NCBI GenBank assembly: GCA_001872725.1
Contig: MNWR01000015.1
Span: 3,257-67,256, forward strand
Direction of reading: 5' to 3'
DNA from: Proteobacteria bacterium CG1_02_64_396
GTDB lineage: Bacteria > Pseudomonadota > MNWR01 > CG1-02-64-396
DNA length: 64,000 bases
The first letter of the stretch is position 1, and every line of letters begins with the position of its first letter. Under the pieces are notes generated by a model. It saw only the letters and a list, made by a program, of their open reading frames with translations, ran no database searches and was not told where the DNA came from. Both the position numbers and the translations under genes were made by a program. This document shows positions 2,041-55,038 of this stretch, piece by piece.

Positions 2041-2200
2041 TAGGGAAGCGCTGATTGAATAGCGCTTCCGAGCGGTCCACGGATGGGCCGCCAAAATCAG
2101 GAACGTCAGTAGGAGGCGACCTAAGTCGCCGAAGCTCTGCTTTTGGTTTTTGCGCAGCGTGCCGCTTCAAGGCAGGAGGCCTTCAATCAGCGTTTCCCTA
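2041..2200. repeat. MITE-like interspersed repeat, copy A. Terminal inverted repeats TAGGGAAGCGCTGATTGAA ... TTCAATCAGCGTTTCCCTA.
   Basis: Internal core GGATGGGCCGCCAAAATCAGGAACGTCAG is shared with the copies at 5676, 41160, 41951 and 54841. Intergenic position. Confidence 0.7.
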
Positions 2201-2214
2201 GATTCAACCGGCCA

Positions 2215-3153
2215 TCAAATACCCGTCCCCTGCCCCAACAGATGCAACACCGCCATCCGCACCGCCACCCCGTTTTTCACCTGTTCGAGCACCAGCGATT
2301 CTGGGCCGTCGGCGGCGTCGGAGGCCAGCTCCACCCCGCGGTTGATCGGGCCGGGGTGCATCACCAGGGCGCCGGGGGCCATGCGGTGCAGGCGGTCGCG
2401 GTTGATCCCGTACATGTTGAAATACTCGTTGATCGAGGGGATGAAACTGCCTTGCATCCGCTCGCGTTGCAGCCGTAGCACCATCACCACGTCGGCCCCG
2501 GCAATCCCCCGTTCCAGGTCGTAATGGACCTCGCACCCGTAGTTCTGTACGTCGCGGGGCAGCAGGGTGGGGGGGGCGACGACGCGGGTGTGGGCCCCCA
2601 GGGTTTTGAGGGCGATCAAATTGGAGCGGGCGACCCGGGAGTGGGTGACGTCGCCGACGATGGCAATCGTTTTGTCTGCCCAATCGCCGATGTGGTCGTG
2701 CATGGTCAGCAGGTCGAGCAGCGCCTGGGTCGGGTGCTCGTGCCGTCCGTCGCCCGCGTTGACGATGCTGCATTCCAGATGGCGGGTGAGGAATTCGCAG
2801 GCCCCCCCCTGAGCATGCCGCACCACCACCACGTCGGGGACCATCGCCTGCAGGTTGGCCGCCGTGTCGAGCAGGGTTTCACCCTTGGTGGTCGATGAGC
2901 CGGAGGCCGAGATGTTGATGACGTCGGCCGAAAGTCGCTTGCCGGCGATCTCAAAGCTGGAACGGGTCCGGGTCGAGTTTTCGAAAAACAGGTTGATGAC
3001 GGTGCGACCGCGCAGCGAGGGGCTTTTTTTGATGTCGCGCTCGTTGAGCTCCCGGAAGGAGCGGGCCACCGCGAGGATTGCCTCGATCTCGTCGCGGCTT
3101 AAGCCCTCCATGGTGATGAGATGGCGCTGATGGAAGGCGAGCGACTCAGCCAT
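2215..3153 (-). CDS. pyrB: Aspartate carbamoyltransferase catalytic subunit.
   Basis: 312 aa with STRTR and HPxQ-type ATCase motifs (ENSTRTRSSFE, HPTQALLD). Confidence 0.9.
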   Translation of the reverse strand: MAESLAFHQRHLITMEGLSRDEIEAILAVARSFRELNERDIKKSPSLRGRTVINLFFENSTRTRSSFEIAGKRLSADVINISASGSSTTKGETLLDTAANLQAMVPDVVVVRHAQGGACEFLTRHLECSIVNAGDGRHEHPTQALLDLLTMHDHIGDWADKTIAIVGDVTHSRVARSNLIALKTLGAHTRVVAPPTLLPRDVQNYGCEVHYDLERGIAGADVVMVLRLQRERMQGSFIPSINEYFNMYGINRDRLHRMAPGALVMHPGPINRGVELASDAADGPESLVLEQVKNGVAVRMAVLHLLGQGTGI

Positions 3154-3668
3154 GGAGAACCTCCTTGCGGGTCACGATCATCTGCCCGTCGTCGCGGGCG
3201 ACCAGCTTGACCAGCCAATGGGTGGGAATGTCGAGGGGGTAGGCGGTGAGGTCAGGTTGGATCGGCAGCTCCCGTTCCCCCCGGTCGATCAACACCGCCA
3301 GGATGATGCGGGCAGGGCGACCGAATTCGAACAGCGCCTCCATCGCCGAACGGATCGTCCGTCCGCTGCGAATCACCTCGTCGACTAGAATCACGGTGCG
3401 GTCGTTGATGTCGGGCAGGATCGTCTCGTGCACCAACGGGTGGTGGCCGATGCGTGAAAGGTCGTCGCGGTAGAAGGTAATGTCGATCATCCCGACTTCG
3501 TCGATGCCGGTTTTGGCCGCCAGCGCCTCGGCGAGCAGGTCGCCCCCAGAGGGGATGCCAACCATGACCGCCCCTGCGGCCATGCGCCGGTCGAGGATCG
3601 CCTCGGCCAGACGGTCGATCCCCTCGGCAACCTCTTCGGCACTCAGAAGGATTTGGGTGGTTTGCATG
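3146..3668 (-). CDS. pyrR: Bifunctional pyrimidine operon regulator / uracil phosphoribosyltransferase PyrR.
   Basis: 173-aa PRTase fold (VILVDEVIRSGRTIRSA). Overlaps the pyrB start by 8 nt. The 554-aa ORF 3146..4810 is a read-through artefact. Confidence 0.9.
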
Positions 3669-3832
3669 AAAAATCCAGGGCAGGAAACGTCCTCGTTTGG
3701 ACAGAAACGAGGCGCTTTGGAAGGATTACCGGATAGAACGTATGGTGTTGTCGTATCATCGCCGCAACGAAATCGAAGCGCTTTCTTACGCTGCTTGTCG
3801 CAGCTTTCAAATTCTGCCGGAGGGCATCTGTA

Positions 3833-5179: not shown

Positions 5180-5678
5180 GCCTCGATGGGTAAAACGACG
5201 GCGTTGGCTCCAATGGGGGGCGGCATTGCTGCCCCTGCTGCTGACGGGCTGCGGCTACACGATGATCGGTTCGGGAGGCCCCGATCTGACCGGGATCTCA
5301 AGGGTGGTGGTCGAGGTGCAGGGGGAGGGAGACCTGCGCGGTGCCCTGGCCCGTCACCTGCAAACCCAGGGGGTCGAGGTGGTCGACCGCAACGGCGACA
5401 TCCCCCGGCTGTGGATCGAGGTCGAGAAACCCTGGATCGTCGCCCTGTCGCGGGACCTGCGCGGGGTGGTGACCGAGGGGGAGGTGGTGGTGGCGGCCAA
5501 GGGGGTGTGGTATCCCAAGCCCGACGTGCGCCAGCCCATCGCACGGGTCGAAGTGCGGCTGCCGGTTGCGATGACCGGCGATCCCACCGTCGACGACGCC
5601 CGAGTTCGGCAGGGGCAACGTCAGGCGGCTCAGGCGTTGGCCGATGAGGTATGGTCGGCCTGGGGCAGCAGGTTCTAG
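5133..5678 (+). CDS. Lipoprotein, LptE-like (LPS-assembly lipoprotein). Start is uncertain.
   Basis: Lipobox LLLTGC. Size and position are typical of lptE-like genes. Its stop codon TAG coincides with the first bases of MITE copy B. Confidence 0.45.
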   Translation: MRSWPRFAAPSRRGGEPRWVKRRRWLQWGAALLPLLLTGCGYTMIGSGGPDLTGISRVVVEVQGEGDLRGALARHLQTQGVEVVDRNGDIPRLWIEVEKPWIVALSRDLRGVVTEGEVVVAAKGVWYPKPDVRQPIARVEVRLPVAMTGDPTVDDARVRQGQRQAAQALADEVWSAWGSRF

Positions 5679-5833
5679 GGAAGCGCTGATTCAAGCGGCG
5701 CTTCCGAGCAGCCCGGGATGGGCCGCCAAAATCAGGAACGTCAGCGACTGATTTTGCAAGCGAAGCAAAAACCACGTTTTTTGCGAAACGCCACTTGAAA
5801 AAAGGCCCGGAGCCTTTTTTCAGTGTTTCCCTA
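5676..5833. repeat. MITE-like repeat, copy B. Its right terminal inverted repeat has diverged.
   Basis: Begins TAGGGAAGCGCTGATTCAAG and ends ...CAGTGTTTCCCTA. Shares the GGATGGGCCGCCAAAATCAGGAACGTCAG core. Confidence 0.65.
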
Positions 5834-5884
5834 GATATGCCCTTAGCCCTGACAGACATTCAACCGTTGTAAGGAGCTCCCATC

Positions 5885-19105: not shown

Positions 19106-19106
19106 C

Positions 19107-24043: not shown

Positions 24044-24310
24044 TCACCCTTTCTCAAACCCCAACTCCCCCCCATCCACAATCACCCGAACGGTGTCGCC
24101 ATCGCGGAAGCTGCCCTCCAGCAACGCAATGGCCAGGGGGTTTTGGATCGCCTGTTGGATCAAACGCTTCAAAGGTCGGGCGCCGAAGGCGGAATCAAAA
24201 CCGTGTTCGGCCAGCCATCCCACCGCCTCGTCGCTCAATTCGAGGGTGATCTTGCGATCGAGCAAAATCTTGCGTAGCCGGGCCAGCTGAATCTCGACGA
24301 TTTTGGCCAT
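24044..24310 (-). pseudogene. clpB: Truncated 3' fragment of clpB (C-terminal 88 codons), duplicated from the intact gene at 35261.
   Basis: Translation [88 protein letters not shown] matches the ClpB C-terminus at 35261..35527 with one amino-acid difference. Confidence 0.8.
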
Positions 24311-24332
24311 ATGGCCCCGCGCCAGCCGGTGG
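24044..24332. repeat. Left copy of a ~289-bp direct repeat (island boundary, attL-like).
   Basis: Near-identical to 35261..35549, with about 5 mismatches. It begins exactly at the clpB stop codon. Confidence 0.8.
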
Positions 24333-24730
24333 GCTCAACGGGACGACCTTTTCCCCGTAGCGGCCCCACCCCACCCTCCACCGTCGCCCCCGCGCCCGCT
24401 GGATCCCCGCCTGCGCGGGGATGACGCCGGGATGGGCGGGGGATGGGGGGCTTCGGGTCAGGCTTGGCACATGGGGATGCGAAAGCCCCAACCGGGCCGG
24501 GAGTTGGAGGCACAGCCCGAAGCCACCCAACAACGGCACTCTTTTCCAGGAGTCTGCCGGTCTTTCGTTGTCGTGGGGTAGAAGGAATAACGACAGCCCT
24601 TTCGCTGATGAGGGGCAAGAAAGACAACCTCTCGCTGAGGGATAGGATTCAGGTAGACGCATTCGGGTCGACAGGTACCCTTCTCCCCTTCGGTAAGCCC
24701 TACCCCATTTTGGCTGAGGTCTCCTGCGGA

Positions 24731-27700
24731 ATGGATCCGTTCTTCGAGCAACCCATCCTCAACTCCCCCTACGAGTCTCCCTCCCGGCATTGGGAGTTGG
24801 ATGAGCACGGCCAACCAACCCAGCGGACCATTGAGCAACGGCGGAGTGCAGAATTCGTCACCCCCATTCCCAAACCCAAAAAGCGCAAAGGGGGGGAGGG
24901 AAATTACCTGGCGTTGGATGAAGGATTTGGGCTGTCCACCCAGGACCAGCGTTACGAACACACCGGTTTGATCAACGCCCTGCGTGAAGAGGTGGCGCAG
25001 TGGCGGCAATTGCCCCCGGCCCACTGGCGAGTGACCCCCGAAACAGCCCGATTGCTCCAGCATTGGCGACACCACCCGTTTGGGGGTGTGCGCCCATTCT
25101 TTTGCCAGGTAGAGGCGGCGGAAACCGCCATTTGGCTGACCGAAGTTGCCCCCCAAAGTGGAAAAACCGGGGAACGGTTTTTGCGCCATCTGGAAGAGTC
25201 CAGCCAAGCAGCCAATCCCGATTTACTGCGTTTGGCCCTCAAGCTGGCCACCGGTGCAGGCAAAACCACCGTGATGGCCATGCTCATCGCTTGGCAAACC
25301 CTCAATGCCGTCCGACGCCCCAACAGCCGCAAATTCACCCGTGGGTTTTTGATCGTTACCCCCGGCATCACCATCAAGGACCGCCTGCGCGTCCTTCAGC
25401 CCAACGACCCGGACAGCTACTACAAGAGCCGCGAGCTGGTGCCCGGCGACATGATGGGCGACCTGGAACGGGCCAAGATCGTCATCACCAACTATCACGC
25501 CTTCAAACTGCGCGAACGTATGCCCCTGTCCAAGGGCGGTAGGCTGCTGCTGCAAGGCCGTGGCGGCGAAGCACTCGATACGTTGGAATCCGAAGGCCAG
25601 ATGATCCAGAGGGTCATGCCGGAGTTGATGGGCATGAAGAACATCCTGGTCATCAACGACGAGGCTCATCACTGCTACCGGGAGAAACCCAACCACGACG
25701 ACGAAAAGCTGAAAGGGGACGAGAAAAGGGAGGCGGAAGAAAACAACGAAGCAGCCCGTCTGTGGATTTCCGGTTTGGAGGCCGTCAACCGCAAGCTGGG
25801 CCTTAGCCGGGTGATCGACCTATCCGCCACCCCCTTCTTTCTGCGTGGTTCCGGTTATGCCGAGGGCACCCTGTTCCCCTGGACCCTCAGCGATTTCTCG
25901 CTGATGGACGCCATCGAATGCGGCATCGTCAAACTGCCGCGTGTGCCGGTGGCCGACAACATCCCCGGCGCCGAAGTGCCGGTGTTCCGCAACCTGTGGG
26001 AACACATCCGCAAAGACATGCCCAAGAAGGGGCGCGGCAAGGCCGAAGGACTCGACCCGCTTAAGTTGCCGACCCGCCTGCAAACCGCCCTCGAAGCCCT
26101 CTACGGCCATTACAAGAAAACCTACGATTTGTGGGAGCAGGCTGGAATCCAAGTGCCGCCCTGCTTCATCGTGGTTTGCAACAACACCTCGACCTCCAAG
26201 CTGGTGTACGACTACATCTCTGGCTTCCAGCGGCTAAACGACGATGGCAGCAGCAAGCTGGAGAACGGTCGGCTCCCACTGTTCCGCAACTTTGATGAAC
26301 ACGGCAATCCACTCGGCCGCCCCAAAACCCTGCTCATCGACAGCGAACAACTGGAATCCGGCGAGGCTTTGGATAACAGCTTCCGGGGCATAGCCGCTGA
26401 CGAAATCGAGCGCTTCCGCCGCGAGATCATCGAACGCACCGGCGACCCGCGTGCGGCCGACACCATCACCGACGCGGCCTTGCTGCGCGAGGTCATGAAC
26501 ACCGTCGGCAAGGCTGGCCGACTGGGCGACTCCATTCGCTGCGTGGTTTCGGTCTCCATGCTGACCGAAGGCTGGGACGCCAGCACCGTCACCCACGTCC
26601 TGGGCGTGCGCGCCTTCGGCACCCAGTTGCTGTGCGAACAGGTCATTGGCCGCGCCTTGCGCCGCCAGTCTTACGAACTCAACGAGGCAGGGCTGTTCAA
26701 CGTCGAATACGCCGACGTTCTCGGCATTCCCTTCGACTTCACCGCCAAACCGGTGGTCGCGCCGCCGCAACCGCCGCGCGAAACCATCCAGGTCAGGGCC
26801 ATCCGTCCCGACCGCGACGCTCTTGAAATCCGCTTCCCCCGCGTCCAGGGCTACCGGGTGGAACTCCCGGAAGAACGCCTCACCGCCGGGTTCAACGCCG
26901 ACTCCGTGCTGGAACTGACCCCCGATCTGGTTGGCCCCTCCATCACCCGCAACGCTGGCATCATCGGCCAGGATGTGGACCTGAACCTGGTCCACACCGG
27001 CGACATGCGCCATTCCACGCTGCTGTTTCACCTCACCCAGCGCCTGATCTACACCCGGTGGCGCGACCCCGGCGAGGAACCCAAGCTCTACCTGTTCGGC
27101 CAACTCAAACGCATCGCCAAACAATGGCTGGACACCTGTTTGGTTTGCAAAGGCGGCACCTACCCGGCCCAGCTCATGTATCAGGCCCTGGCCGACGTGG
27201 CTTGCGAACGCATCACCGCTGGCATCACCCGAGCGCTGATTGGTGAGCGCCCCATCAAAGCCGTGCTTGATCCGTACAACCCCACCGGCACCACCGCCCA
27301 CGTTAACTTCAGCACTGCGAAGAAAGACCGCTGGCAGACCGACGCCCGCCGCTGCCACCTCAACTGGGTCATTCTCGATAGCGGTTGGGAAGGCGAGTTT
27401 TGCCGCGTCGCCGAAGCCCATCCGCAGGTACGCGCCTATGTGAAGAACCACAACCTGGGGCTGGAGGTGCCGTACCGCTATGGCTCCGAAATGCGCACCT
27501 ACCTGCCCGACTTCGTCGTTCTTGTAGACGACGGCCATGGCGAGGATGACCTGCTGCACCTTGTGGTCGAGGTCAAAGGCTACCGGCGCGAAGACGCCAA
27601 GGAGAAGAAAGCCACGATGGAAACCTACTGGGTGCCGGGGGTGAACAACCTCAAGCAATACGGCCGCTGGGCCTTCGCCGAGTTCACCGAGGTCTGGCAG

Positions 27701-27775
27701 ATGCAGGACGACTTCGCCGCGAAGGTGGAGGCCGAATTCAGCAAGATGATCGGGCGGGTGGTGGATGGAAGCTGA
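24731..27775 (+). CDS. res: Type III restriction endonuclease Res subunit (SF2 DEAH helicase plus C-terminal PD-(D/E)xK nuclease). Start is uncertain; alternatives are 24443 and 24608.
   Basis: Motif I TGAGKTTVMA. Motif II ILVINDEAHHC. Motif VI QVIGRALRR. C-terminal nuclease motif PDFVVLVDD...LHLVVEVKG. Confidence 0.8.
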   Translation: MDPFFEQPILNSPYESPSRHWELDEHGQPTQRTIEQRRSAEFVTPIPKPKKRKGGEGNYLALDEGFGLSTQDQRYEHTGLINALREEVAQWRQLPPAHWRVTPETARLLQHWRHHPFGGVRPFFCQVEAAETAIWLTEVAPQSGKTGERFLRHLEESSQAANPDLLRLALKLATGAGKTTVMAMLIAWQTLNAVRRPNSRKFTRGFLIVTPGITIKDRLRVLQPNDPDSYYKSRELVPGDMMGDLERAKIVITNYHAFKLRERMPLSKGGRLLLQGRGGEALDTLESEGQMIQRVMPELMGMKNILVINDEAHHCYREKPNHDDEKLKGDEKREAEENNEAARLWISGLEAVNRKLGLSRVIDLSATPFFLRGSGYAEGTLFPWTLSDFSLMDAIECGIVKLPRVPVADNIPGAEVPVFRNLWEHIRKDMPKKGRGKAEGLDPLKLPTRLQTALEALYGHYKKTYDLWEQAGIQVPPCFIVVCNNTSTSKLVYDYISGFQRLNDDGSSKLENGRLPLFRNFDEHGNPLGRPKTLLIDSEQLESGEALDNSFRGIAADEIERFRREIIERTGDPRAADTITDAALLREVMNTVGKAGRLGDSIRCVVSVSMLTEGWDASTVTHVLGVRAFGTQLLCEQVIGRALRRQSYELNEAGLFNVEYADVLGIPFDFTAKPVVAPPQPPRETIQVRAIRPDRDALEIRFPRVQGYRVELPEERLTAGFNADSVLELTPDLVGPSITRNAGIIGQDVDLNLVHTGDMRHSTLLFHLTQRLIYTRWRDPGEEPKLYLFGQLKRIAKQWLDTCLVCKGGTYPAQLMYQALADVACERITAGITRALIGERPIKAVLDPYNPTGTTAHVNFSTAKKDRWQTDARRCHLNWVILDSGWEGEFCRVAEAHPQVRAYVKNHNLGLEVPYRYGSEMRTYLPDFVVLVDDGHGEDDLLHLVVEVKGYRREDAKEKKATMETYWVPGVNNLKQYGRWAFAEFTEVWQMQDDFAAKVEAEFSKMIGRVVDGS

Positions 27776-27782: not shown

Positions 27783-27872
27783 TTCAGGAGCATTTTCTTG
27801 GCGTCAGGAAAATGCTCCCTAGGTGGCGATGCGCACCATTTTGTTGGCGCCAACAAAATGGTTCGACAAGAG
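27783..27872. promoter_or_regulatory. Two adjacent palindromes in the res-dinD intergenic region.
   Basis: GGAGCATTTTC-N10-GAAAATGCTCC and a perfect 28-bp palindrome ACCATTTTGTTGGCGCCAACAAAATGGT. Confidence 0.3.
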
Positions 27873-27898
27873 GCCGGGCAGAAACGGGAGAAGAAGTC

Positions 27899-28747
27899 AT
27901 GAGCAACATCAAGTTGTTCGAGTCCAAGCACATCCGTTCGGCCTGGGACGAAGCCACCCAACGCTGGTACTTTGCCATTGTCGATGTCGTCGCAGCCTTG
28001 AGCGAAAGCGAGAACCCGCAGGTCTACTGGCGGGTGCTCAAGAAGCGCCTGCTGGCCGAGGGCAATGAAACCGTTACAGCTTGTAACGCCTTGAAGATGA
28101 CCGCAGCCGATGGCAAGCAGCGTCTGACCGACGTGGCGGATACCGAGCAATTGCTTCGGCTCATTCAGTCCATCCCCTCCCCCAAAGCCGAGCCGTTCAA
28201 ACGCTGGCTGGCCCAGGTGGGCTACGAGCGGCTGGAAGAAATCGAAAACCCCGAACTGGCCGCCGCACGTATGCGCGAGTTGTACAAAGCCAAGGGCTAC
28301 AGCGACGAATGGATCGAAAAGCGGGTGCGCGGCATCGCCATCCGCGACGAACTGACCCACGAATGGCAGAAGCGCGGCGTCAAGGAGCAGCGCGAATACG
28401 CCATCCTTACCGCCGAAATCAGCCGCGCCACCTTTGGCATGACCCCCGCCGAATACAAAACCTTCAAGAGTCTCGACAAGCCCGCCGACAACCTGCGCGA
28501 CCACATGAACGATCTGGAACTGATCTTCACCATGCTGGGCGAAGCCTCCACCACCGAGATTGCTCGTAATAAAGACGCGCAAGGCTACGGCGAGAACCGC
28601 GAAGCGGCCGTGGCGGGCGGCGCGGTGGCCGGACGGGCACGCCGCGACCTGGAGAAAAAATCCGGCAAGCGCGTCGCCAGCCCGGAAAACTACAAAGCCT
28701 TGCCCGAAGCCGTGGCACGCAAAAAGCTGAAGAAGAAGGAAGCCTGA
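27899..28747 (+). CDS. Bro-N / DinD-like (DNA-damage-inducible protein D family) protein.
   Basis: N-terminal Bro-N-like IRSAWDEATQRWYFAIVDVVAAL. C-terminal region resembles E. coli DinD. Lies between res and mod. Confidence 0.65.
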   Translation: MSNIKLFESKHIRSAWDEATQRWYFAIVDVVAALSESENPQVYWRVLKKRLLAEGNETVTACNALKMTAADGKQRLTDVADTEQLLRLIQSIPSPKAEPFKRWLAQVGYERLEEIENPELAAARMRELYKAKGYSDEWIEKRVRGIAIRDELTHEWQKRGVKEQREYAILTAEISRATFGMTPAEYKTFKSLDKPADNLRDHMNDLELIFTMLGEASTTEIARNKDAQGYGENREAAVAGGAVAGRARRDLEKKSGKRVASPENYKALPEAVARKKLKKKEA

Positions 28748-28749: not shown

Positions 28750-31605
28750 ATGGCCAAAGCACCGAAAAGAAAACTTAGCGTCGAAACCCTTACCCACGAC
28801 GCCACCCGCAAAAACATCCCCACCGCCGAATACCAATCGGTGATGCAGAAGGAAGAGCAGACGCCGGTTCGCGTGGCCTACCCTCGCAATGCTGCCGGGC
28901 AGGAGGAAGAAAAGCAGCGCCGCAACCGCGACCTGGACCCGCAACTGGTCTGGCGCGGCAAGGATGAACAAGACTGGTCCGACCTCGTCGTTCACGCCCC
29001 GCCGGTTTACATCCAGGAAAAGGTCCACCCCAAGGTGTTGATTGATGACCTGCGCCAGCAAAGCCAGGAGCAACAGGCAGCGGCGGGGCGTCAGGCGGGG
29101 AAATTACGGCAAGTCGACCTCTTCGCCGACTTCAACGGCCTGCCCGATAACAACGCCAAAACCGAGTTCTACCAGCACGACGGCCACTGGCAGAACCGCA
29201 TGATTTTGGGCGACAGCCTGCAAGTGATGGCCTCCCTGGCCGAGCGCGAAGGGCTGCGCGGTCAGGTGCAGTGCATCTATTTCGATCCGCCCTACGGCAT
29301 CAAATTCAACAGCAACTTCCAGTGGTCCACCACCAGCCGGGACGTGAAAGACGGCAACACCGACCACATCACCCGCGAGCCGGAACAGGTCAAGGCCTTC
29401 CGCGACACCTGGCGCGACGGCATCCACTCCTACCTCACTTACCTGCGCGACCGGCTGACTGTGGCGCGGGATTTGTTGACGGATTCCGGGTCGATCTTTG
29501 TGCAGATTGGGGATGAGAACGTGCACCGGGTACGGGCGGTGATGGATGAGGTGTTTGGGGATGGGAACTTCATTTCACAGATCGGATTTGCCAAGACTTC
29601 TGGCTCGACCGATGACTATCTTGGACAAACAACCGACTACCTGCTCTGGTATGCAAGAGATCGCCAGCAGGTGAAGTATCGAGCCGCACTCAAACGTAAA
29701 CGCCCAGGTGAAGCAGGTGGCACGAATTACAACAGGCTTAGAGATATCCTCGGCAATAGCCGGTCTATCAAGACTTCCGAGGATTTGTCGTCTCAGATTG
29801 AGACTGGCGAGCTACGCATTTATTCACTGGATAATCTGACTTCCCAGAGCGCGGGTCGTGATAAGGGCGAAGGGGCAGCTTCTTGGTTCGGCGTCGAGTT
29901 GGATGGACGCATACATAAGCCATCGCTATCCGTTCGTTGGAAAACAAACGAGAGCGGTATGGCACGGCTCAAAGCAGCTGGGCGCTTGGAAGCCACGGAG
30001 AAACGACTTGGATACGTTCGCTACCTCGATGATTTTCCCGCTGTACAAATAAATAACCGCTGGGAGGATGTGGCTGCAAGTTTCATGGCGGACAAGATGT
30101 ATGTTGTTCAGACATCACCGACCGTCATTCAACGCTGCCTCCTGATGACTACCGACCCCGGCGACTTGGTTCTCGACCCCACCTGCGGTTCCGGCACCAC
30201 CGCCTACGTCGCCGAACAATGGGGCCGCCGCTGGATCACCCTTGATACCTCCCGCGTCGCCCTGGCCCTGGCCCGAGCCCGCATCATGGGTGCCCGCTAC
30301 CCCTACTACCTGCTGGCCGACAGTCGCGAGGGGCAGATCAAGGAGGCCGAAGTCACCCGCACCGCGCCTTCCAGCCAACCCACACGCGGCAACATCCGCC
30401 ACGGCTTCGTCTACGAGCGCGTCCCCCACATCACCCTGAAATCCATCGCCAACAACAGCGAGATCGACGTCATCTGGAGCAATTGGCAGGCGAAGCTGGA
30501 ACCGCTGCGCGAGCAACTCAACCAGGCGCTGGGCAAACATTGGCAGGAATGGGAAATCCCCCGCGACGCCGAGGCCCAATGGCCCGATGCGGCGAAGAAA
30601 CTCCACGCCGACTGGTGGCAAGCCCGCATCACCCGCCAGAAGGAGATCGACGCCTCCATCGCCGCCAAGGCCGAGTTCGAATACCTCTACGACAAGCCCT
30701 TTGATGACAAGAAGAAGGTCCGCGTCGCCGGTCCCTTCACCGTGGAAAGCCTGTCGCCCCACCGCGTCCTGGCCGTCGATGAAAACGACGAACTGATCAA
30801 CAAGGTGGCCGAGCTGGAGCCCGGCTACGGCGAGGAACGCAGCTTTGTCCAGATGATCCTGGAAAACCTGAAGACCGCTGGCGTTCAGCAGGCCCACAAG
30901 GAAGACAAGATCAACTTCACCGCCCTGACCCCCTGGCCGGGCAACCTGGTTTGCGCCGAGGGCCGATACGAAGATGCCGGCGGTGAAAAACGCGCCGCCA
31001 TCTTCATCGGCCCCGAGTTCGGCACCGTCTCCCGCCCCGACCTGGTGGAGGCCGCCCGCGAGGCGGGCGACGCCGCTTTCGACGTGCTCATCGCCTGCGC
31101 CTTCAACTACGACGCCCATTCCTCCGAGTTCGACAAACTCGGCCGCATCCCCGTGCTCAAGGCCCGCATGAACGCCGACCTGCACATGGCCGAAGACCTG
31201 AAGAACACCGGCAAGGGCAACCTGTTCGTGATCTTCGGCGAGCCCGACATCGACATCCTCGACGCCGAAGATGGTCAGGTGCGGGTCAAGGTCAACGGCG
31301 TGGACGTGTTCCACCCCAACACCGGCGAAGTCCGCAGCGACGGCAGCGACGGCATCGCCTGCTGGTTCATCGACACCGACTACAACATGGAATCCTTCTT
31401 CGTCCGCCACGCCTACTTCCTGGGCGCCAACGACCCCTACAAAGCATTGAAGACAACCCTCAAAGCCGAAATCGACGAGGAGGCCTGGGCTACCCTGAAC
31501 AGCGATACCTCACGCCCCTTCGACAAACCCAAGTCCGGCCGCATCGCAGTGAAGGTGATCAATCACCTGGGGGATGAGGTGATGAAGGTGTTCAGGGTGG
31601 AGTGA
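28750..31605 (+). CDS. mod: Beta-class N6-adenine DNA methyltransferase (Type III Mod-like), 951 aa, with a ~330-aa C-terminal extension.
   Basis: Motif IV FDPPYG comes before motif I LDPTCGSGTT, which is the beta-class order. The start overlaps the upstream stop region. Confidence 0.8.
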   Translation: MAKAPKRKLSVETLTHDATRKNIPTAEYQSVMQKEEQTPVRVAYPRNAAGQEEEKQRRNRDLDPQLVWRGKDEQDWSDLVVHAPPVYIQEKVHPKVLIDDLRQQSQEQQAAAGRQAGKLRQVDLFADFNGLPDNNAKTEFYQHDGHWQNRMILGDSLQVMASLAEREGLRGQVQCIYFDPPYGIKFNSNFQWSTTSRDVKDGNTDHITREPEQVKAFRDTWRDGIHSYLTYLRDRLTVARDLLTDSGSIFVQIGDENVHRVRAVMDEVFGDGNFISQIGFAKTSGSTDDYLGQTTDYLLWYARDRQQVKYRAALKRKRPGEAGGTNYNRLRDILGNSRSIKTSEDLSSQIETGELRIYSLDNLTSQSAGRDKGEGAASWFGVELDGRIHKPSLSVRWKTNESGMARLKAAGRLEATEKRLGYVRYLDDFPAVQINNRWEDVAASFMADKMYVVQTSPTVIQRCLLMTTDPGDLVLDPTCGSGTTAYVAEQWGRRWITLDTSRVALALARARIMGARYPYYLLADSREGQIKEAEVTRTAPSSQPTRGNIRHGFVYERVPHITLKSIANNSEIDVIWSNWQAKLEPLREQLNQALGKHWQEWEIPRDAEAQWPDAAKKLHADWWQARITRQKEIDASIAAKAEFEYLYDKPFDDKKKVRVAGPFTVESLSPHRVLAVDENDELINKVAELEPGYGEERSFVQMILENLKTAGVQQAHKEDKINFTALTPWPGNLVCAEGRYEDAGGEKRAAIFIGPEFGTVSRPDLVEAAREAGDAAFDVLIACAFNYDAHSSEFDKLGRIPVLKARMNADLHMAEDLKNTGKGNLFVIFGEPDIDILDAEDGQVRVKVNGVDVFHPNTGEVRSDGSDGIACWFIDTDYNMESFFVRHAYFLGANDPYKALKTTLKAEIDEEAWATLNSDTSRPFDKPKSGRIAVKVINHLGDEVMKVFRVE

Positions 31606-31818: not shown

Positions 31819-33006
31819 ATGGACCCGATCAAAAATCCCTTTTCTCCCGGTGAGGGTGCGCCACCGCCCGAATTGGTCGGGCGCGACCCACTGATCGAGC
31901 AAGCACGTATTCTGCTGGGGCGGGTGAAGCAGAAACGTCCGGAAAAGAGTCTGCTACTGACTGGCTTGCGTGGTGTGGGCAAGACCGTGCTGCTGAACGA
32001 AATCGAGCGGATGGCGAGGGCCGTTGGCTATCAGACGATTTTGCTGGAAGCGCAGGAGGAAAAGCCGCTGGGCGAGCTCATCTACCCCGCGCTGCGAGGA
32101 CTGCTTTACGAGCTGGATCGGGTGGCTGGAGGGGGCGACAAGGTCAAACGCGGGCTGGCGGTGCTGCGCAGTTTTATCGGCAGCATCAAGCTGACGGTGG
32201 GCGATGTGGCGCTGGGGTTGGACATCGAGCCGGCCAAAGGCACGGCCGATAGCGGCGATCTGGAAATCGATCTGCCGAATCTGTTTGTGGCCATCGCCGA
32301 GGCGGCGCAAGAGCGCCAGAGCGCCGTGGCCATCCTGGTGGATGAAATCCAGTACCTGAGCCAGAAGGAACTGGGGGCTCTCATCATGGCGATGCACAAG
32401 ATGCAGCAGAAGCAGTTGCCGCTGGTGCTGCTCGCCGCCGGTTTGCCGGTACTTCCCGGTATGGCAGGGGAATCGAAGTCGTATGCCGAACGGTTGTTCA
32501 ATTTCCCGGACATCGGGGCGCTGTCGGCAGCGGACGCGGCCAAGGCATTACGCGATCCAGCCCATGAAGCGGGTGTCGAATTCCAGGAGGATGCGCTGCA
32601 AGAGGTGTTCTACCTGACGCACGGTTACCCCTACTTCATTCAGGAATGGGGTTACCAATCCTGGAATATCGCGGCGGCGAGTCCAATTACCTTGCAGACC
32701 GTGCAGGCCGCTACGCCAGAGGTGATCCGTCGGCTCGACAAGAATTTTTTCCGGGTGCGCTTTGATCGACTGACACCGGGGGAGAAGAACTTTTTGCGTG
32801 CGATGGCCCATCTTGGCCCCGAACACCATCGCACCGGCGACATCGCCACCGTGTTGGGCATGTCGGTCAAAGGGATAGGTCCGGCTCGCTCCAAGCTGAT
32901 CAAGAAGGGAATGATCTACAGCCCGGCGCACGGCGACATGGCATTCACTGTGCCGCTGTTCGATGAGTTCATGATTCGCGCCATCCCCGAATTTATTCCC
33001 GGTTGA
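31819..33006 (+). CDS. P-loop NTPase of the Orc1/Cdc6 or Arch_ATPase (AAA_16-like) type with a C-terminal winged-helix-like region.
   Basis: FSPGEG...LVGRDPLIEQ precedes Walker A GLRGVGKT. Walker B ILVDEIQY. 395 aa. AT-rich upstream region. Confidence 0.7.
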   Translation: MDPIKNPFSPGEGAPPPELVGRDPLIEQARILLGRVKQKRPEKSLLLTGLRGVGKTVLLNEIERMARAVGYQTILLEAQEEKPLGELIYPALRGLLYELDRVAGGGDKVKRGLAVLRSFIGSIKLTVGDVALGLDIEPAKGTADSGDLEIDLPNLFVAIAEAAQERQSAVAILVDEIQYLSQKELGALIMAMHKMQQKQLPLVLLAAGLPVLPGMAGESKSYAERLFNFPDIGALSAADAAKALRDPAHEAGVEFQEDALQEVFYLTHGYPYFIQEWGYQSWNIAAASPITLQTVQAATPEVIRRLDKNFFRVRFDRLTPGEKNFLRAMAHLGPEHHRTGDIATVLGMSVKGIGPARSKLIKKGMIYSPAHGDMAFTVPLFDEFMIRAIPEFIPG

Positions 33007-33014
33007 AACCGCCC

Positions 33015-35147
33015 ATGGACTTGCGCATTGCCGATACCTTCACCGACAGCCTTGCCCGTCTGACCGGCGAGGAGCAGAAGGCCGTCAAGACGACCGCCTT
33101 CGACCTGCAACTGAACCCGGCCAATCCGGGCATGAGTTTCCACAAGCTGGACAAGGCGCGGGACAAGAACTTCTGGTCGGTGCGGGTTAGCAGCGATATT
33201 CGGCTGATCGTGCATCGCACCGAAGCCAGCTTGTTGCTGTGCTATGTGGATCACCACGACAAGGCCTATGACTGGGCCAGTCGCCGCAAACTGGAAACCC
33301 ATCCCAAAACCGGGGCGGCCCAGTGGGTGGAAATCCGCGAACGGGTGGAGGAGGTGCGGGGGCCCTATCGGGCCGAGGTGGAAACCTCCATCCCTGTGGC
33401 TGCATCCAGCCACGCAAAACCGCCGCTGTTTTCAGGCCGGACTGACGATGAATTGCTGGGTTATGGCGTTCCCGTGGAATGGCTGGCCGATGTACGTCAG
33501 GCCGACGAGGACAGCCTTCTGGAGCTGGCCGACCATCTACCAGCCGAGGCGGCCGAGGCCCTGTTGGAACTTGCCACCGGCGGCAAGCCGCAAGTGACAC
33601 CCCCGACGGCGGGGGTTGATCCCTTCAGCCATCCCGACGCGCAGCGCCGCTTCCGGGTCATGAACGATGTGGAAGAACTGGAACGTGCCCTGGCGTTTCC
33701 TTGGGAAAAGTGGACGGTTTTCCTGCACCCGGCCCAACGGCAGTGGGTGGAGCGCGACTACAGCGGACCTGTGCGGATTGCCGGTTCGGCCGGTACGGGC
33801 AAGACCATCGTCGCGCTGCATCGCGCTGTTTTTCTGGCACGCAGTCAGCCCGAAGCCCGCGTGTTGCTGGCTACCTTCTCGGAAACCCTGGCCAATGCCT
33901 TGCGTGCCAAGCTCCGGCGATTGATCAGCAACGAACCCCGTTTGGCGGAGCGGCTGGAAGTGCATGCCATGAATGCCATTGGCGAACGGCTCTATGAACA
34001 GCAATTCGGGCGGCCACATATTGCCGCGCGGGAGGTGATCAAGCGCTTCATGACAGAAGCCGTTAACCAGTTGATGGCAAAGGAAAACCCGGGCCTTAAA
34101 TTCAGCGTCAACTTTCTGCTGACGGAATGGGAAGACCTGGTCGATGCCTGGCAACTGGATGGCTGGGAGGCCTATCGCGATGTGAAGCGCTTGGGCAGAA
34201 AAACCCGCCTGCCGGAGCAGCAACGTGCCGTGTTTTGGTCGGTCTTCGATGCGGTTCGCACGCGTCTGAAGGCGGATGGCCTGCTCACCCATGCATCCAT
34301 GTTCAGCAAACTGGCCACCCATTTGGCGCAGCGCAAACATCCCCCCTTCGACTACGTCGTGGTCGATGAGGTGCAGGACGTCAGCGTCGCGCAGTTGCGT
34401 TTCCTGGCCGCCATGGGCGCAACGATGGGCCTGGGTCGACCGAACAGCCTTTTTTTTGCTGGCGACCTGGGGCAGCGGATTTTTCAGCAGCCGTTTTCTT
34501 GGAAGTCGCTGGGCGTGGATGTACGCGGGCGTTCGCGCACCCTGCACATCAATTACCGCACTTCGCACCAGATCAGGGTGCAGGCCGACCAGCTCCTGGG
34601 GCCGGAAATTTCTGATGTGGATGGCAACAAGGAAGAACGGCGCGGGACGGTTTCCGTATTCAACGGGCCGTCGCCGGTTGTTGCCACGTTCGAGAGTGAA
34701 GAGGCAGAAATTGAGGCAGTCGGCATTTGGCTGGCATCACGCAGCAAAGAGGGCGTGGCCTCCCATGAAATCGGCGTATTCGTGCGCTCGGATGCCGAAC
34801 TGGAACGCGCCCGTGCCGCAGTCGACAAGGCTGGGCTGCCGTTCAGGGTGCTTGATGAGCATGTTGAAACGGTCAGCGGCCAGGCCTCCATCAGCACCAT
34901 GCACCTGGCCAAAGGTCTGGAGTTCCGGGCCGTTGTGGTGATGGCCTGCGATGATGAAGTGATCCCGCTGCAAACACGGATTGAAGCGGTGGCCGACGAT
35001 GCCGATTTGGAGGAGGTCTACAACACCGAGCGCCATCTGCTTTATGTGGCGTGTACCCGTGCCAGGGATCAGTTGCTGGTGAGTGGGGTGCGGCCTGTCT
35101 CGGAGTTTCTGGACGACTTGGGCATTACAACGGGGAGGTTTTTGTAA
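33015..35147 (+). CDS. UvrD/Rep-type SF1 helicase with an N-terminal RelE/ParE-toxin-like domain. Alternative start is a TTG at 33003 overlapping the upstream stop.
   Basis: N-terminus SFHKLDKARDKNFWSVRVSSDIRLIVHRTEASLLLCYVDHHDKAY is RelE/ParE-like. Helicase motifs GSAGTGKT, VVVDEVQD, FAGDLGQRI, STMHLAKGLEF, YVACTRAR. Confidence 0.75.
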   Translation: MDLRIADTFTDSLARLTGEEQKAVKTTAFDLQLNPANPGMSFHKLDKARDKNFWSVRVSSDIRLIVHRTEASLLLCYVDHHDKAYDWASRRKLETHPKTGAAQWVEIRERVEEVRGPYRAEVETSIPVAASSHAKPPLFSGRTDDELLGYGVPVEWLADVRQADEDSLLELADHLPAEAAEALLELATGGKPQVTPPTAGVDPFSHPDAQRRFRVMNDVEELERALAFPWEKWTVFLHPAQRQWVERDYSGPVRIAGSAGTGKTIVALHRAVFLARSQPEARVLLATFSETLANALRAKLRRLISNEPRLAERLEVHAMNAIGERLYEQQFGRPHIAAREVIKRFMTEAVNQLMAKENPGLKFSVNFLLTEWEDLVDAWQLDGWEAYRDVKRLGRKTRLPEQQRAVFWSVFDAVRTRLKADGLLTHASMFSKLATHLAQRKHPPFDYVVVDEVQDVSVAQLRFLAAMGATMGLGRPNSLFFAGDLGQRIFQQPFSWKSLGVDVRGRSRTLHINYRTSHQIRVQADQLLGPEISDVDGNKEERRGTVSVFNGPSPVVATFESEEAEIEAVGIWLASRSKEGVASHEIGVFVRSDAELERARAAVDKAGLPFRVLDEHVETVSGQASISTMHLAKGLEFRAVVVMACDDEVIPLQTRIEAVADDADLEEVYNTERHLLYVACTRARDQLLVSGVRPVSEFLDDLGITTGRFL

Positions 35148-35260: not shown

Positions 35261-37828
<2,568 letters not shown>

Positions 37829-40800: not shown

Positions 40801-41084
40801 CCCCGCTCTTCAATCCAACGGAACTGGTTGTCGTGGCGACGCAGGCGGTAGCGGCGGCTGAAGGGGGCTGGGTCGTGCAGCGCTTGGCGTAACTGCTCTT
40901 CGGCCTGGGGGCGGTCCTCGGGGTGGATCGCCGTAGCCGCCAGCGCCAGCTCCTGGGTGGCGGTGGTGCCCCGAAAGGCGAGCCAGGCGGGATTGAACCG
41001 TACCCAGCACCCCTGTGCGTCGAGGGCCGCGATCATCGAGGGGATGTGCCGAGCCAGATCGGCCAAGGTAATGGAACGGGGCAT
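37890..41084 (-). CDS. Multi-PAS (about 4 PAS/PAC) GGDEF-EAL signalling protein.
   Basis: Repeated PAS cores. RLGGDEF motif. EAL-domain motifs EITEG and QGNHF. Confidence 0.85.
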
Positions 41085-41159
41085 GGTCAGTCCTTGGGGC
41101 GCGAAATCCAGCTTTCCCGGCGAGGGAAGGGAAGCGGTGGTTGATGCGGCGTTTCTGTG

Positions 41160-41258
41160 CGGCCCAGGGATGGGCCGCCAAAATCAGGAACGTAGGAGGC
41201 GACTCCGTCGCCGAAGCTCTGCTGAAAAAGGCAGGAGCCTTGAATCAGCGTTTCCCTA
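41160..41258. repeat. MITE-like repeat, copy C, truncated at the left end.
   Basis: GGGATGGGCCGCCAAAATCAGGAACGT ... TTGAATCAGCGTTTCCCTA. Ends 5 bp before the radC stop. Confidence 0.6.
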
Positions 41259-41262
41259 AAGG

Positions 41263-41940
41263 CTACATCAAGCCACGGCGAGCCAACGAGGTCCAGCCCT
41301 GCCGGGTGACAATCAGATGATCGAGAACCCTGATTTCGAGCCCTTCGGCCAGGGTGACCACGCGGTGGGTGAGGGCCAGGTCTTGGGGCGAGGGATCTTG
41401 GGAGCCCCCTGGATGGTTGTGAACCAAGATCAAGGCGGGACTACCGGCTCGGAAGGCGGCGGCAAAGATGCGTTGTGGGGTGACCGGGGCCGAGGCCATC
41501 CCCCCCAGAGCGATGGTTTCGATCCCTAAAACCCGGTGGGCCTGGGTGAGCAAAAGAACGGCAAATCGCTCTTCGGACAGCCCCCCCAGATGCAGGTTGA
41601 GGTAGGCGACCACCGCCTCGGGGGTTTCGATCGGGTCGCTGCCCAGCGCTTGTTCAAAGAGGATCCGCTCGGCGGCGGCACGCACAATTTTGAGCGCCGT
41701 GGCCCCCGCCTCCCCCAAGCCAGGCGTCTGCGCCAGTTCCCCCCAGGGGGCGTCGCACACCCCGCGCAGCGAGCCGAAACGGGCGACGAGATCCTTGGCC
41801 AGCGGCTTAACGTCGCGCCGGGGGATCGCCTGGGTCAGCAGCAGCTCGACCGCCTCGTAGTCGTGAAAACCGTCGAGCCCCCCCTGCACAAAGCGGGTGC
41901 GCAGCCGTTGGCGGTGTCCTTGGTGGGTATCCGTGCCCAT
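41263..41940 (-). CDS. radC: RadC-family JAB/MPN-domain protein.
   Basis: JAMM motif HNHPGGS. N-terminal HhH region. 225 aa. Confidence 0.85.
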   Translation of the reverse strand: MGTDTHQGHRQRLRTRFVQGGLDGFHDYEAVELLLTQAIPRRDVKPLAKDLVARFGSLRGVCDAPWGELAQTPGLGEAGATALKIVRAAAERILFEQALGSDPIETPEAVVAYLNLHLGGLSEERFAVLLLTQAHRVLGIETIALGGMASAPVTPQRIFAAAFRAGSPALILVHNHPGGSQDPSPQDLALTHRVVTLAEGLEIRVLDHLIVTRQGWTSLARRGLM

Positions 41941-41950
41941 GGGGGCTCCT

Positions 41951-42051
41951 TAGGGAAACGCTGATTCAAGGCTCCTGCCTTGAGTCAGCACGCTACGCAA
42001 AAACCGAAGCCCTGCTGAAAAAGGCAGGAGCCTTGAATCGGCGCTTCCTTA
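41951..42051. repeat. MITE-like repeat, copy D, a short variant.
   Basis: TAGGGAAACGCTGATTCAAGG ... TTGAATCGGCGCTTCCTTA. Starts 11 bp upstream of the radC start. Confidence 0.6.
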
Positions 42052-42142
42052 GTGGGTTTTTCGCCCAATGAATCGGCGTCAGGGACGCCACGAACAGATA
42101 CGGTCTCTACAAAGGGGGAGGACGCGGTTCGGCGGGACCGTC

Positions 42143-50387: not shown

Positions 50388-50427
50388 AAAGGGGCCGGTC
50401 CCGGGAGGGACCGGCCCCTTTGCGTTG
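50388..50427. other. Perfect 16-bp-stem hairpin between convergent genes (CAAAGGGGCCGGTCCC-GGGA-GGGACCGGCCCCTTTG).
   Basis: Seen directly in the sequence. It lacks a U-tract, so it is a possible bidirectional terminator or structural element. Confidence 0.3.
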
Positions 50428-50434
50428 GGGCCGT

Positions 50435-52729: not shown

Positions 52730-52785
52730 GTCCACTCCGTGTGTCCTTGAAAATGGGGTACGGCGGGGTTGTGTCGGGTCGGTGG

Positions 52786-52813
52786 GGAAGGGATGAAAAA
52801 AAAGCCCCCCTCG
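52786..52813 (-). terminator. Rho-independent terminator downstream of the PEGA-domain gene.
   Basis: GCCCCCC-TCGAAA-GGGGGGC hairpin followed on the minus strand by an 8-T run. Confidence 0.6.
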
Positions 52814-52840
52814 AAAGGGGGGCCTGTTGCATGGCTGGAC

Positions 52841-54589
52841 TTATTTATCGGGAATCAACTTCACCCGCATGCTGACATCGGCACCGCAAACCCGGATCCA
52901 CTGCCGCCAGGTTTGGTACCCTTCGGCGCTGACCTCCACGTCGTAACGACCGCACGACAAAGCGATGCCGGGGACGTAGCGGGGGACGATGTTCATCACC
53001 CGGATTTTGGCCTCGACGGGCTCGGGATAGAGGGTCAGGCGACCTTTGGCCATGGCGGCGTTGTCGGCGACCAAGGGGTCGTCAATCGCGCTGCCGACCG
53101 ACTCGTCCCCTTTGGGCATCAAGGCGGGGGGGGGCGGCGGGAGGTTCGGACGGGAACGGTCCTCTTTCACCCGGAAGGCGACCCGGATGGTCACCCCGTC
53201 GCCGTCGTTCATCAGCGACAACATCCGCAGACTGGTGACGTTGAGGTCGGGCAGTTGGGTCGGACGGCCATCATCTTTGCCGCTCTGGGCGTACATGCGC
53301 AGCGCCTCTTGTTGCACCCATTTGCTGCCGTCGAGCACCGAGCGCAGCGCCGCCTGATAGGGGCTGGTTAAGCCATCGAGCTCGCCGTGAAAGGCCCGCA
53401 CCACAACCCCCTCCCAGCTGGGGTCGATCTTGGTCATCCGGGCCTCCTCCTTCTCGTACTGCTCCTGAATCCCCCGGAATTCCAGCGCGGCGGCCTGCCG
53501 TGCCTGCTCGAAGGTGGCCAGCTTCTCTTTCTGGGTTTTGAGCAGCCCGGTCAACAGCTCTTTCTCGTTCTCAGCGGCCCGGATGGAGCGCTTGAGGTCT
53601 TCGATGAAGTGGTTGTGGGAATCCAGGGTGTCGCCCAGCGCCTTGGGTTGTAGGGCGTTGAACGACTCGGTGGCGTCGATGGCGGCGCGAGAGGCCGATA
53701 GATCGAGAACCCCCGATTGATAACCGGCATCGCTCAGCAGGGCGTCGAGATCACCCATCGAGCGGATCAGCTGCACCTTAACCCGGTCGGAGGGGCGTCC
53801 CTTCCTGGTGTTGCCGTCGTCGGCCCGGAAGGGGAAGTAGGCAAATCGCTTCAAACGCAGGAAGGTGGTCCCTTTGGTCCCGGCGTCGATTTGAATGCGT
53901 AGCGGCTGCTCTCCGGTCCAAAGCATCGCGCCATCGCCCAGGTTGCCGAGATAATCGGCCCCCATCTGTTGGTTGACCCGGTCGCGGGCGTTGCCGCCCA
54001 GGCTGGTCTTGGCTTGCATCAGGGGAATTTCGGCGGCGTCGTCGGCGAAGGTGTTCAACGAGCGATCGGTGTCGAACAGGCCACGGGTGTAGACCGAGGC
54101 GACCAAGATGTCGCCCCAATGGAACTCTTTGAGGTAGGCCTGGAGTTCAGCCTGACGGGCGGCGATGTCTTTGTGGAATTGCTCGATCCGCTTGCCGACC
54201 TGGTCAATGGCGGTCGAGGTGGCATCGACCCGGCGGGCCAGGTTGTCGCGGTTGTCGATGGCGGTTTGCAGTCGCTGGGCCAGAGTGTCGTAGCGGGACT
54301 GCACCGCCTGGAAGGCCTCGTACTGGCTCATGCGCTGCCGGTATTCGGCGTTGAGCTGATCGGCCTCTTTGCCCAGGGCCTTGAGCGCCTCCTGATCGTC
54401 GCCTGGTGAAGAGAAGGTCTGCACCTTTTGCAACGACAAGCGCAGCGATTGTTCCAGTCCTGCGCGGGTATCCTGCTTCACGGGGATCCAATCCGACCCC
54501 TCAGCCTGTCCAACGCCAAAGGCGATGGGGAGGAACAGAGAAAGGGCGGCGGCAAGCGAACGTCGAAGTTCGGCCATGGACGGCTCCAA
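52841..54589 (-). CDS. Periplasmic coiled-coil protein with a C-terminal PEGA-like domain.
   Basis: Signal peptide. Long heptad-rich central region. C-terminus KIRVMNIVPRYVPGIALSCGRYDVEVSAEGYQTWRQWIRV is PEGA-like. Confidence 0.55.
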   Translation of the reverse strand: MEPSMAELRRSLAAALSLFLPIAFGVGQAEGSDWIPVKQDTRAGLEQSLRLSLQKVQTFSSPGDDQEALKALGKEADQLNAEYRQRMSQYEAFQAVQSRYDTLAQRLQTAIDNRDNLARRVDATSTAIDQVGKRIEQFHKDIAARQAELQAYLKEFHWGDILVASVYTRGLFDTDRSLNTFADDAAEIPLMQAKTSLGGNARDRVNQQMGADYLGNLGDGAMLWTGEQPLRIQIDAGTKGTTFLRLKRFAYFPFRADDGNTRKGRPSDRVKVQLIRSMGDLDALLSDAGYQSGVLDLSASRAAIDATESFNALQPKALGDTLDSHNHFIEDLKRSIRAAENEKELLTGLLKTQKEKLATFEQARQAAALEFRGIQEQYEKEEARMTKIDPSWEGVVVRAFHGELDGLTSPYQAALRSVLDGSKWVQQEALRMYAQSGKDDGRPTQLPDLNVTSLRMLSLMNDGDGVTIRVAFRVKEDRSRPNLPPPPPALMPKGDESVGSAIDDPLVADNAAMAKGRLTLYPEPVEAKIRVMNIVPRYVPGIALSCGRYDVEVSAEGYQTWRQWIRVCGADVSMRVKLIPDK

Positions 54590-54840
54590 GCAGGAAAAAT
54601 CGGGAAATTACCACAGGGCTTCAAGGCCGATTATCCCAATTTTTTCTTATCCCGAAAGAGCATTACCGCCATTCATCCAAACTGATCCCTGCAATACCGA
54701 TATTTGGGGGGCGATGAGGGGGCGATAGCCCCCAACAATCCCGGTTCAGGTGTTGTGGGGATACGCCGATGAGCTCGACCCGAACGCCTCCCGTGAGCGT
54801 CCCCCCCTAGTTGAAGGGGGGACAGGTGGGATTTACAGGC

Positions 54841-55038
54841 GCTTCAATGACGGAGTTTTGCCTTGAATCAGCACGCCTGGCAAAAACCAAAAGTAGGCGC
54901 CCTGAAGCGGCGATGGTTTTTGCTTCGCTTGCAAAATCAGCAGAGCTTCGGGACGGGGTCGCCTCCTACTGACGTTCCTGATTTTGGCGGCCCATCCGTG
55001 GGCTGCTCGGAAGCGCTGAATCAATCAGCGCTCCCTTA
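54841..55038. repeat. MITE-like repeat, copy E, in the opposite orientation to the others.
   Basis: Contains the reverse complement of the core (CTGACGTTCCTGATTTTGGCGGCCCATCC). Ends ...AGCGCTGAATCAATCAGCGCTCCCTTAG. Confidence 0.6.

Follow-up and report, generated by a model that had tools for sequence, protein, structure and literature searches.

Probable IS5-group miniature inverted-repeat transposable elements with ISBmu2-type ends in an uncultured zetaproteobacterium

ISBmu2 and ISBmu23, insertion sequences (ISs) known from Burkholderia multivorans ATCC 17616 and phage KS5, are IS5-like, 1210 bp long, bounded by 16-bp inverted repeats (IRs), and preferentially inserted at CTAA (Lynch et al.; PMC3091744). 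The first 13 nt of their terminal repeat, together with CTAA/CTAG-type targets and a 4-bp duplication, recur in a family of five short repeats within a 64-kb stretch of DNA (64,000 nt, hereafter the window; contig MNWR01000015.1, positions 3,257–67,256) from Proteobacteria bacterium CG1_02_64_396, which was assigned to the Zetaproteobacteria by Degli Esposti (PMC5714133). [quoted passage not shown] The window elements measure 95–200 bp and code for nothing, whereas ISBmu2, at 1210 bp, carries the gene for a 330-aa DDE transposase; the two have no common interior.

Correia elements (NEMIS/CREE) of Neisseria are approximately 100–155 bp long, have terminal inverted repeats (TIRs), fall into deletion size classes, and occur about once per 10 kb, between genes or at gene ends. 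They differ from the window MITEs in their 26-bp TIRs of unrelated sequence and in duplicating TA; functional effects—promoters, IHF sites, and RNase III processing—are documented for Correia elements but not for the window MITEs. Tourist and mPing (PIF/Harbinger, distant IS5 relatives) are likewise non-autonomous, are moved by an IS5-related DDE transposase, and use targets containing TAA/TTA, but they are eukaryotic, generate a 3-bp target-site duplication (TSD), and are unrelated in sequence. The repetitive extragenic palindromes (REPs), with BIME and ERIC, are also abundant intergenic palindromic repeats; REPs, however, are 20–40-nt imperfect palindromes served by RAYT (Y1) transposases and without a TSD, and thus unlike the window MITEs in both sequence and TSD pattern.

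The BrickBuilt, MITE293, and MITE700 elements of Porphyromonas gingivalis and the Neisseria ATR element are short, non-coding, multicopy, and mostly intergenic, and carry IS5-family TIRs (PMC4596501). These IS5-derived MITEs differ from the window family in having other TIRs (e.g., GAGACCTTCGCA), in belonging to another IS5 subgroup, and in their variable TSDs; in addition, the P. gingivalis MITEs share a genome with their parent IS, whereas no cognate transposase was detected in the window or in related loci.

Copies, boundaries, and target sites

A profile hidden Markov model built from 16 copies identified exactly five related loci in the window and no other, and a repeat finder recovered the same relationships among them. 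The preliminary description of this DNA, in which a family of five MITE-like copies with TIRs had been proposed from the letters alone, is thus borne out, with 4-bp TSDs and many unrelated insertion contexts as further support. The high density that it pointed out also holds, and has precedent among bacterial MITEs. The 26-nt core GGATGGGCCGCCAAAATCAGGAACGT occurs exactly four times, at 2081, 5716, and 41168 on the plus strand and at 54972 on the minus strand, with none expected from 100 shuffles, and the 19-nt terminus originally given for the family occurs six times at ≤3 mismatches, compared with 0.01 expected. The element proper, GGAARCGCTGATT…AATCAGCGYTTCC, begins with GGAA, finishes with TTCC, and has a 4-bp YTAR duplication on both sides; the TAG first placed at the head of the TIR belongs to this duplication rather than to the element. 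The TIR proper, GGAA[A/G]CGCTGATT[C/G]AA, is 16–17 bp long. In the form GGAARCGCTGATTSAA, it is found at both ends of copies A, B, and D and of most metagenome copies, with one end being degenerate in copy C and in copy E.

Copy A (2040–2201, plus strand) consists of a 154-bp element (2044–2197) between two CTAG duplications (2040–2043 and 2198–2201). It is a deletion subtype without the TTTTGCAAGCGAAGCAAAA module, and its neighbors are pyrB (minus strand, stop at 2215–2217) and a DUF2141 gene. Copy B (5675–5834, plus strand), with a 152-bp element (5679–5830) between CTAG duplications at 5675–5678 and 5831–5834, represents a subtype without the GGCGAC…GTCGCC module and without a middle segment. 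In copy C (41130–41259, plus strand), the 126-bp element (41130–41255) is followed by a right TSD, CTAA (41256–41259); the left TIR is degenerate (GGAAGCGGTGGTTGATG), and the left side is without a matching TSD. Its start, previously set at 41160, is corrected to 41130 by inclusion of this degenerate TIR, and its neighbors are two minus-strand genes, radC, with its stop at 41263, and a PAS-GGDEF-EAL gene that starts at 41084. Copy D (41950–42052, no strand assigned) comprises a 95-bp element (41954–42048) between TTAG duplications (41950–41953 and 42049–42052). It lacks the core, being a near-palindrome of two right-end modules in inverted orientation, and is situated between cysS and radC, with its left TSD abutting the AGGAG upstream of the radC ATG (41940). 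Copy E (54836–55039, minus strand) is of the full-length type, approximately 200 bp, with the element running from 55035 to ~54836 beside a TSD of CTAA (minus strand; 55039–55036); a divergent end, CATTGAAGCGCCTG (~54836–54849), stands in place of the right TIR. The core and TIRs were first described as common to all copies, which holds for the core in A, B, C, and E but not in D, and does not hold for the canonical right TIR in E. All five copies are intergenic and non-coding, as had been stated, and tblastn with IS5 transposases gave no match within the elements.

Perfect 4/4 TSDs were observed in half of the distinct complete copies obtained by the profile search (9 of 18), and a tenth copy, L137, has one with a 1-nt offset. 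The perfect cases are CTAA (four), TTAG (two), CTAG (two), and a single non-canonical AAAG/AAAG, to which copy D adds its TTAG/TTAG; copies A and B are both CTAG/CTAG. At the first and the fourth position, the bases on the two sides co-vary, and this co-variation, together with the AAAG/AAAG case, indicates that all four bases are target and not element; a duplication of 2 bp (TA) or 3 bp (YTA) was accordingly rejected.

Two insertions lie directly on stop codons. The TAG at 5676–5678, which copy B had been thought to supply, is the stop of the 150/181-aa gene upstream of that copy and sits inside the CTAG duplication; the TAA at 55036–55038 (minus strand), the stop of a 484-aa pentapeptide/Fer2/thioredoxin gene, sits in the same way inside the CTAA TSD of copy E. 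Because both stops lie in the target duplication, the two genes ended at these YTAR sites before insertion, and the duplication kept the stop. The two apparently element-supplied stop codons are therefore simply duplicated targets.

YTAR tetramers are approximately four-fold depleted in the window (G+C content, 63%), with 125 observed and 543 expected from base composition; for CTAG, 29 were observed and 216 expected. When the 115 YTAR sites outside the MITEs were assigned with a crude gene map, 78 were coding, 31 were intergenic, and 6 overlapped a stop codon, leaving ~37 harmless sites per 64 kb, clustered at gene ends. Since YTAR both contains TAA/TAG and is rare, harmless targets are concentrated at gene ends, and copies come to lie just after, or on, stop codons. 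Target preference and purifying selection are enough to explain the observed positions, and the insertions themselves would be selectively neutral.

Some further features near the copies were noted. The gene preceding copy B (5226–5678, plus strand), labeled LptE-like in the preliminary description, matches no Pfam or NCBIfam family, and a search of 5.8 billion proteins recovered homologues from its own strains alone. The right end of copy C (41228–41259) and the left end of copy D (41950–41981) form a 32-nt perfect inverted repeat around the 225-aa radC gene, whereas the two ends of copy D itself are only 90% alike; gene conversion or inversion between copies C and D is possible. A composite transposon made up of radC and copies C and D was considered and rejected: copies C and D are two separate elements that each turn an outer end toward radC, and copy D has its own TTAG/TTAG. 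Beside copy E, ~80 nt (54764–54850) are common only to positions 3712–3830 of the metagenome locus L143, and include CATTGAAGCGCCTGTAAATCCC and the hairpin CCCCCCTTCAACTAGGGGGG. The ~70 nt adjoining copy E (54764–54835, minus strand), which contain this hairpin and are repeated beside the MITE in L143, are probably a second small repeat outside the MITE family proper; the sequence shared by copy E and L143 may represent either such a second family or a variant MITE end.

Ends shared with ISBmu2 and the case for mobilization in trans

A 43-nt palindrome composed of both TIRs was compared with the plasmids of PLSDB, and two terminus matches were examined, both of which proved to be the ends of annotated IS5-family elements. 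One is ISBmu2 itself, on B. multivorans pBMUL01, where GGAAACGCTGATTTAT…ATTGATCAGCGTTTCC is flanked on either side by CTAG and the 1210-bp element contains one 330-aa open reading frame (ORF), the transposase. The other, a 1208-bp IS5-family element on a plasmid of Cupriavidus pauculus, is also flanked by CTAG. Both carry ends that match those of the MITEs, GGAAGCGCTGATTGAAT and GGAAACGCTGATTCAAG, and all 13 terminal bases (GGAA[A/G]CGCTGATT) are common to the MITE TIR, the left and right IRs of ISBmu2, and the Cupriavidus element. Both transposases match NF033581, "IS5 family transposase," at 350–359 bits, and that of ISBmu2 shares 54% identity with the transposase of E. coli IS5. For IS5, ISPpu21, and a Diaphorobacter element, agreement of the IRs with the MITE TIR stops after the initial GGAA; the CGCTGATT signature is therefore specific to the ISBmu2 clade. 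The CTAA preference reported for ISBmu2 and ISBmu23 also fits the TSD spectrum of the MITEs, as TTAG is CTAA read on the opposite strand. A Desulfovibrio metagenome-assembled genome (MAG) has a fragment of an IS5 transposase 46 nt away from the same TIR. Thus, an IS with matching TIRs, proposed earlier as something to look for, was indeed detected, albeit in other bacteria rather than in this genome. A literature search with the TIR sequence matched only unrelated PCR primers.

The mechanism is clear by analogy with elements of this already well-known kind. An ISBmu2-like DDE transposase, supplied in trans, would bind both ends of the element, excise or copy it, and make a 4-bp staggered cut at a YTAR site for its insertion; repair of this cut would yield the 4-bp duplication. 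A master element of approximately 200 bp, composed of small hairpin modules, gave rise by internal deletion to subtypes of ~150 bp and ~175 bp, each of them mobilized in turn to several loci.

Four results weigh against this proposal. tblastn searches with both IS5 transposases, covering the window and ~141 kb of related metagenome sequence, detected no ISBmu2-like transposase; a partner in this genome is therefore hypothetical, and the family could be a fossil. When a full-length copy was compared with plasmids by BLAST, its interior showed no similarity to ISBmu2-type elements or to any plasmid record, and thus no sign of direct derivation from such an IS by deletion. No empty site was recovered for copies A, C, D, and E among the strain variants sampled, so that mobility rests on the TSDs and on the multiplicity of contexts. 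Finally, TSDs are imperfect or missing in copy C, in L145 and L147, and in a few 3/4 matches.

Modular anatomy, age, and alternative readings

Exact protein matches place the window in two MAGs from Crystal Geyser groundwater, CG1_02_64_396 and [quoted passage not shown] When metagenomes were scanned for the core, 20 stretches emerged, all from a handful of samples, containing 15 new distinct copies; searching these loci, a partly redundant 141 kb, with the profile added ~7 copies without the exact core. This copy number is compatible with the density in the window, one per 13 kb.

Alignment of the window copies with the 15 further distinct metagenome copies revealed a modular master element of approximately 200 bp, with a consensus of 208 nt. 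From left to right, it comprises the left TIR GGAAGCGCTGATTGAAT, which pairs with the nearby GCGCTTCC; a hairpin, GCGGCCCA…TGGGCCGC; a conserved AAAATCAGGAACGT; a GGCGAC-CTAA-GTCGCC hairpin; TTTTGC…GCAAAA; a GC-rich segment; TTTTGGTTTTTGCGAAGCG; and a right module, AAGGCAGGAGGCCTTGAATCAGCGTTTCC. The full-length type is represented by copy E and five metagenome copies, and the internal-deletion forms by copies A, B, and C in the window. The deletion boundaries of copy A recur identically in L137, L132, L131b, and L147, and those of copy B in L143, L134b, and L141b, in each case at unrelated loci, which means that the short forms themselves must have been copied to new sites. Two different deletion routes in the Crystal Geyser family both lead to a length of ~147–154 bp.

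Pairwise identity among family copies ranges from 68% to 93%, with a median of 82%. Copies A, C, D, and E are fixed in the sampled strains, being found at identical spacing in every strain-variant contig recovered: copy A has the same intergenic spacing in 10 such contigs, and copy C is present in all six variants of its locus (L121–L126). The copy B locus was recovered in four contigs only, the two shortest of which (L151 and L152) end inside the element. On the basis of the ~82% identity, the presence of A, C, D, and E in every sampled strain, and the lack of a cognate transposase nearby, the family looks old and currently quiet.

An alternative explanation, which we consider unlikely, is that the host has put the elements to use as RNA or DNA modules with a function—intrinsic terminators, mRNA-stabilizing hairpins, small RNAs, or protein-binding sites—and that selection keeps them at gene ends. 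Their predicted transcripts are indeed strongly structured (z = −2.8 to −4.0 relative to shuffles), although any TIR-bearing element must be expected to fold well, and both hairpins and intergenic location are generic to MITEs. RNAalifold applied to 19 copies kept only three local hairpins. Their conservation, and a G-C to A-T compensatory change in two copies, would favor a structural role; however, only 1 of 17 consensus pairs covaries, the covariation term is unfavorable (+0.72), and Rfam gave no match at the gathering threshold in the window and none at E ≤ 1 in L133, a locus with a full-length copy. Conservation of the sequence itself may also be cited for a function, as the core is identical in the four window copies carrying it, which elsewhere are 70–82% identical, and some subtypes carry AAAAAAGGC…GCCTTTTTT; against this, modules are freely deleted between subtypes. 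The position of all copies between co-directional genes, and the presence of A, C, D, and E in every sampled strain, would also suit a function, yet the direction of insertion varies, with A and C antisense to transcription and B and E sense. Scans for terminator-like and promoter-like signals gave results at or below shuffle expectation in all five copies, including for terminators in or at the elements, so the terminator or mRNA-stability role suggested in the preliminary description receives no support from such simple scans. There is no evidence of a special cellular function, and exaptation is at most a minority possibility on top of the selfish-element explanation.

Far less probable is an origin as IS630/Tc1-mariner-type MITEs, which would insert at TA, often within CTAG, and duplicate TA only. 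IS630 targets CTAG with duplication of TA, every intact end of the window family can be read as GGGAA…TTCCC bordered by TA on both sides, and the pattern of Y-TA on the left and TA-R on the right superficially fits. The bases outside TA nevertheless co-vary between flanks (CTAA/CTAA in four copies, TTAG/TTAG, CTAG/CTAG), the AAAG/AAAG copy has no TA at all, the family has exactly the TIR of IS5-group elements with NF033581-matching transposases, and no IS630-like gene was seen. The least credible reading, that the copies are debris of longer ISs (solo ends or collapsed elements) and not a self-standing miniature family, can draw on the TIR beside a truncated IS5 transposase fragment in the Desulfovibrio MAG, an indication that IS collapse occurs in the superfamily, and on the one damaged end in each of copies C and E, but is contradicted by the presence of both ends within 95–200 bp in most copies, by ~170 bp of shared interior without coding potential or similarity to IS5 transposase genes, and by the recurrence of deletion subtypes at several loci, which requires mobilization of the short form. 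Mobilization of an IS5-group MITE family in trans hence accounts best for these copies.

The terminus in other phyla, strain variants, and a neighboring island

A scan of a genome collection for the TIR yielded at least 120 loci. Among the matches listed are many from Dialister, as well as Lachnospiraceae and other Clostridia, Collinsella, Thioalkalivibrio, Chromatiaceae, Rhodocyclaceae, Lysobacterales, Verrucomicrobiota, Bacteroidota, Chloroflexota, and Planctomycetota. The terminus TAGGGAARCGCTGATTSAA bounds short non-coding elements in isolates and MAGs of at least six phyla, the groups including Negativicutes (e.g., Dialister), Clostridia, Actinomycetota, Gammaproteobacteria, Verrucomicrobiota, and Bacteroidota. 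At least 66 distinct short elements were delimited in other phyla, with unrelated interiors; the base 5′ of TA matches between their flanks in 71%, compared with 45 ± 6% in shuffles. Lengths of roughly 150–165 bp recur among these elements. Among the matches listed, sizes peak at 159–161 bp in four independent clusters (Dialister, a Clostridia group, Lysobacterales, and an Oscillospiraceae MAG), with one Dialister element of this length being very abundant, and a second size class consists of bare palindromes of 27–35 bp, little more than two TIRs. These elements could conceivably constitute an undescribed pan-bacterial MITE superfamily in which the convergent length of ~150–160 bp is the physical optimum for IS5-group end-pairing, although we regard this proposal as tentative and rather doubtful.

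A transposase beside the TIR was also sought in these other genomes, but the ORFs at ~30 of the at least 120 loci turned out to be ordinary host genes (ABC transporter, LysR, XseA, macro domain, and others), and apparent elements of 1.1–3.5 kb were pairs of neighboring MITEs. Some bins look mis-binned, such as "Fusicatenibacter" contigs carrying the Dialister element.

For annotation, these results explain the five intergenic repeats, and also why metagenome contigs break or turn chimeric at them. They extend the hosts of IS5-group MITEs to an uncultured zetaproteobacterial lineage, provide a clean consensus with its subfamilies, and flag the ISBmu2-type terminus as a marker of MITE-like elements across many phyla. 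The current understanding of how MITEs work is unchanged.

In two metagenome contigs, L136 (Ga0210028_1021964) and L140 (Ga0210028_1050840), the left flank of one copy is joined to the right flank of another; L136 combines the left flank of window copy A with the right flank of the L135/L148 copy. Such joins arose either by recombination between copies or through chimeric assembly at the repeat. The recombination role raised in the preliminary description is hinted at only by these two chimeric contigs, possibly assembly artifacts.

A separate strain difference concerns a 289-nt direct repeat (24044–24332 and 35261–35549; 98% identical), the second copy of which is the 3′ end of clpB. The ~11 kb between the repeats is missing from the strain variants L121 and L123, and no integrase is found among its ORFs. 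It encodes a Res-like protein (24443–27775) and a Mod protein (28750–31605; PADLOC MTase_III, 1619 bits) of type III restriction-modification, a Bro-N/PDC-S13 protein (27812–28747), an AAA_16 ATPase (31819–33006), and a UvrD/GajB-like helicase (33003–35147), and is a strain-variable defense island at the end of clpB.

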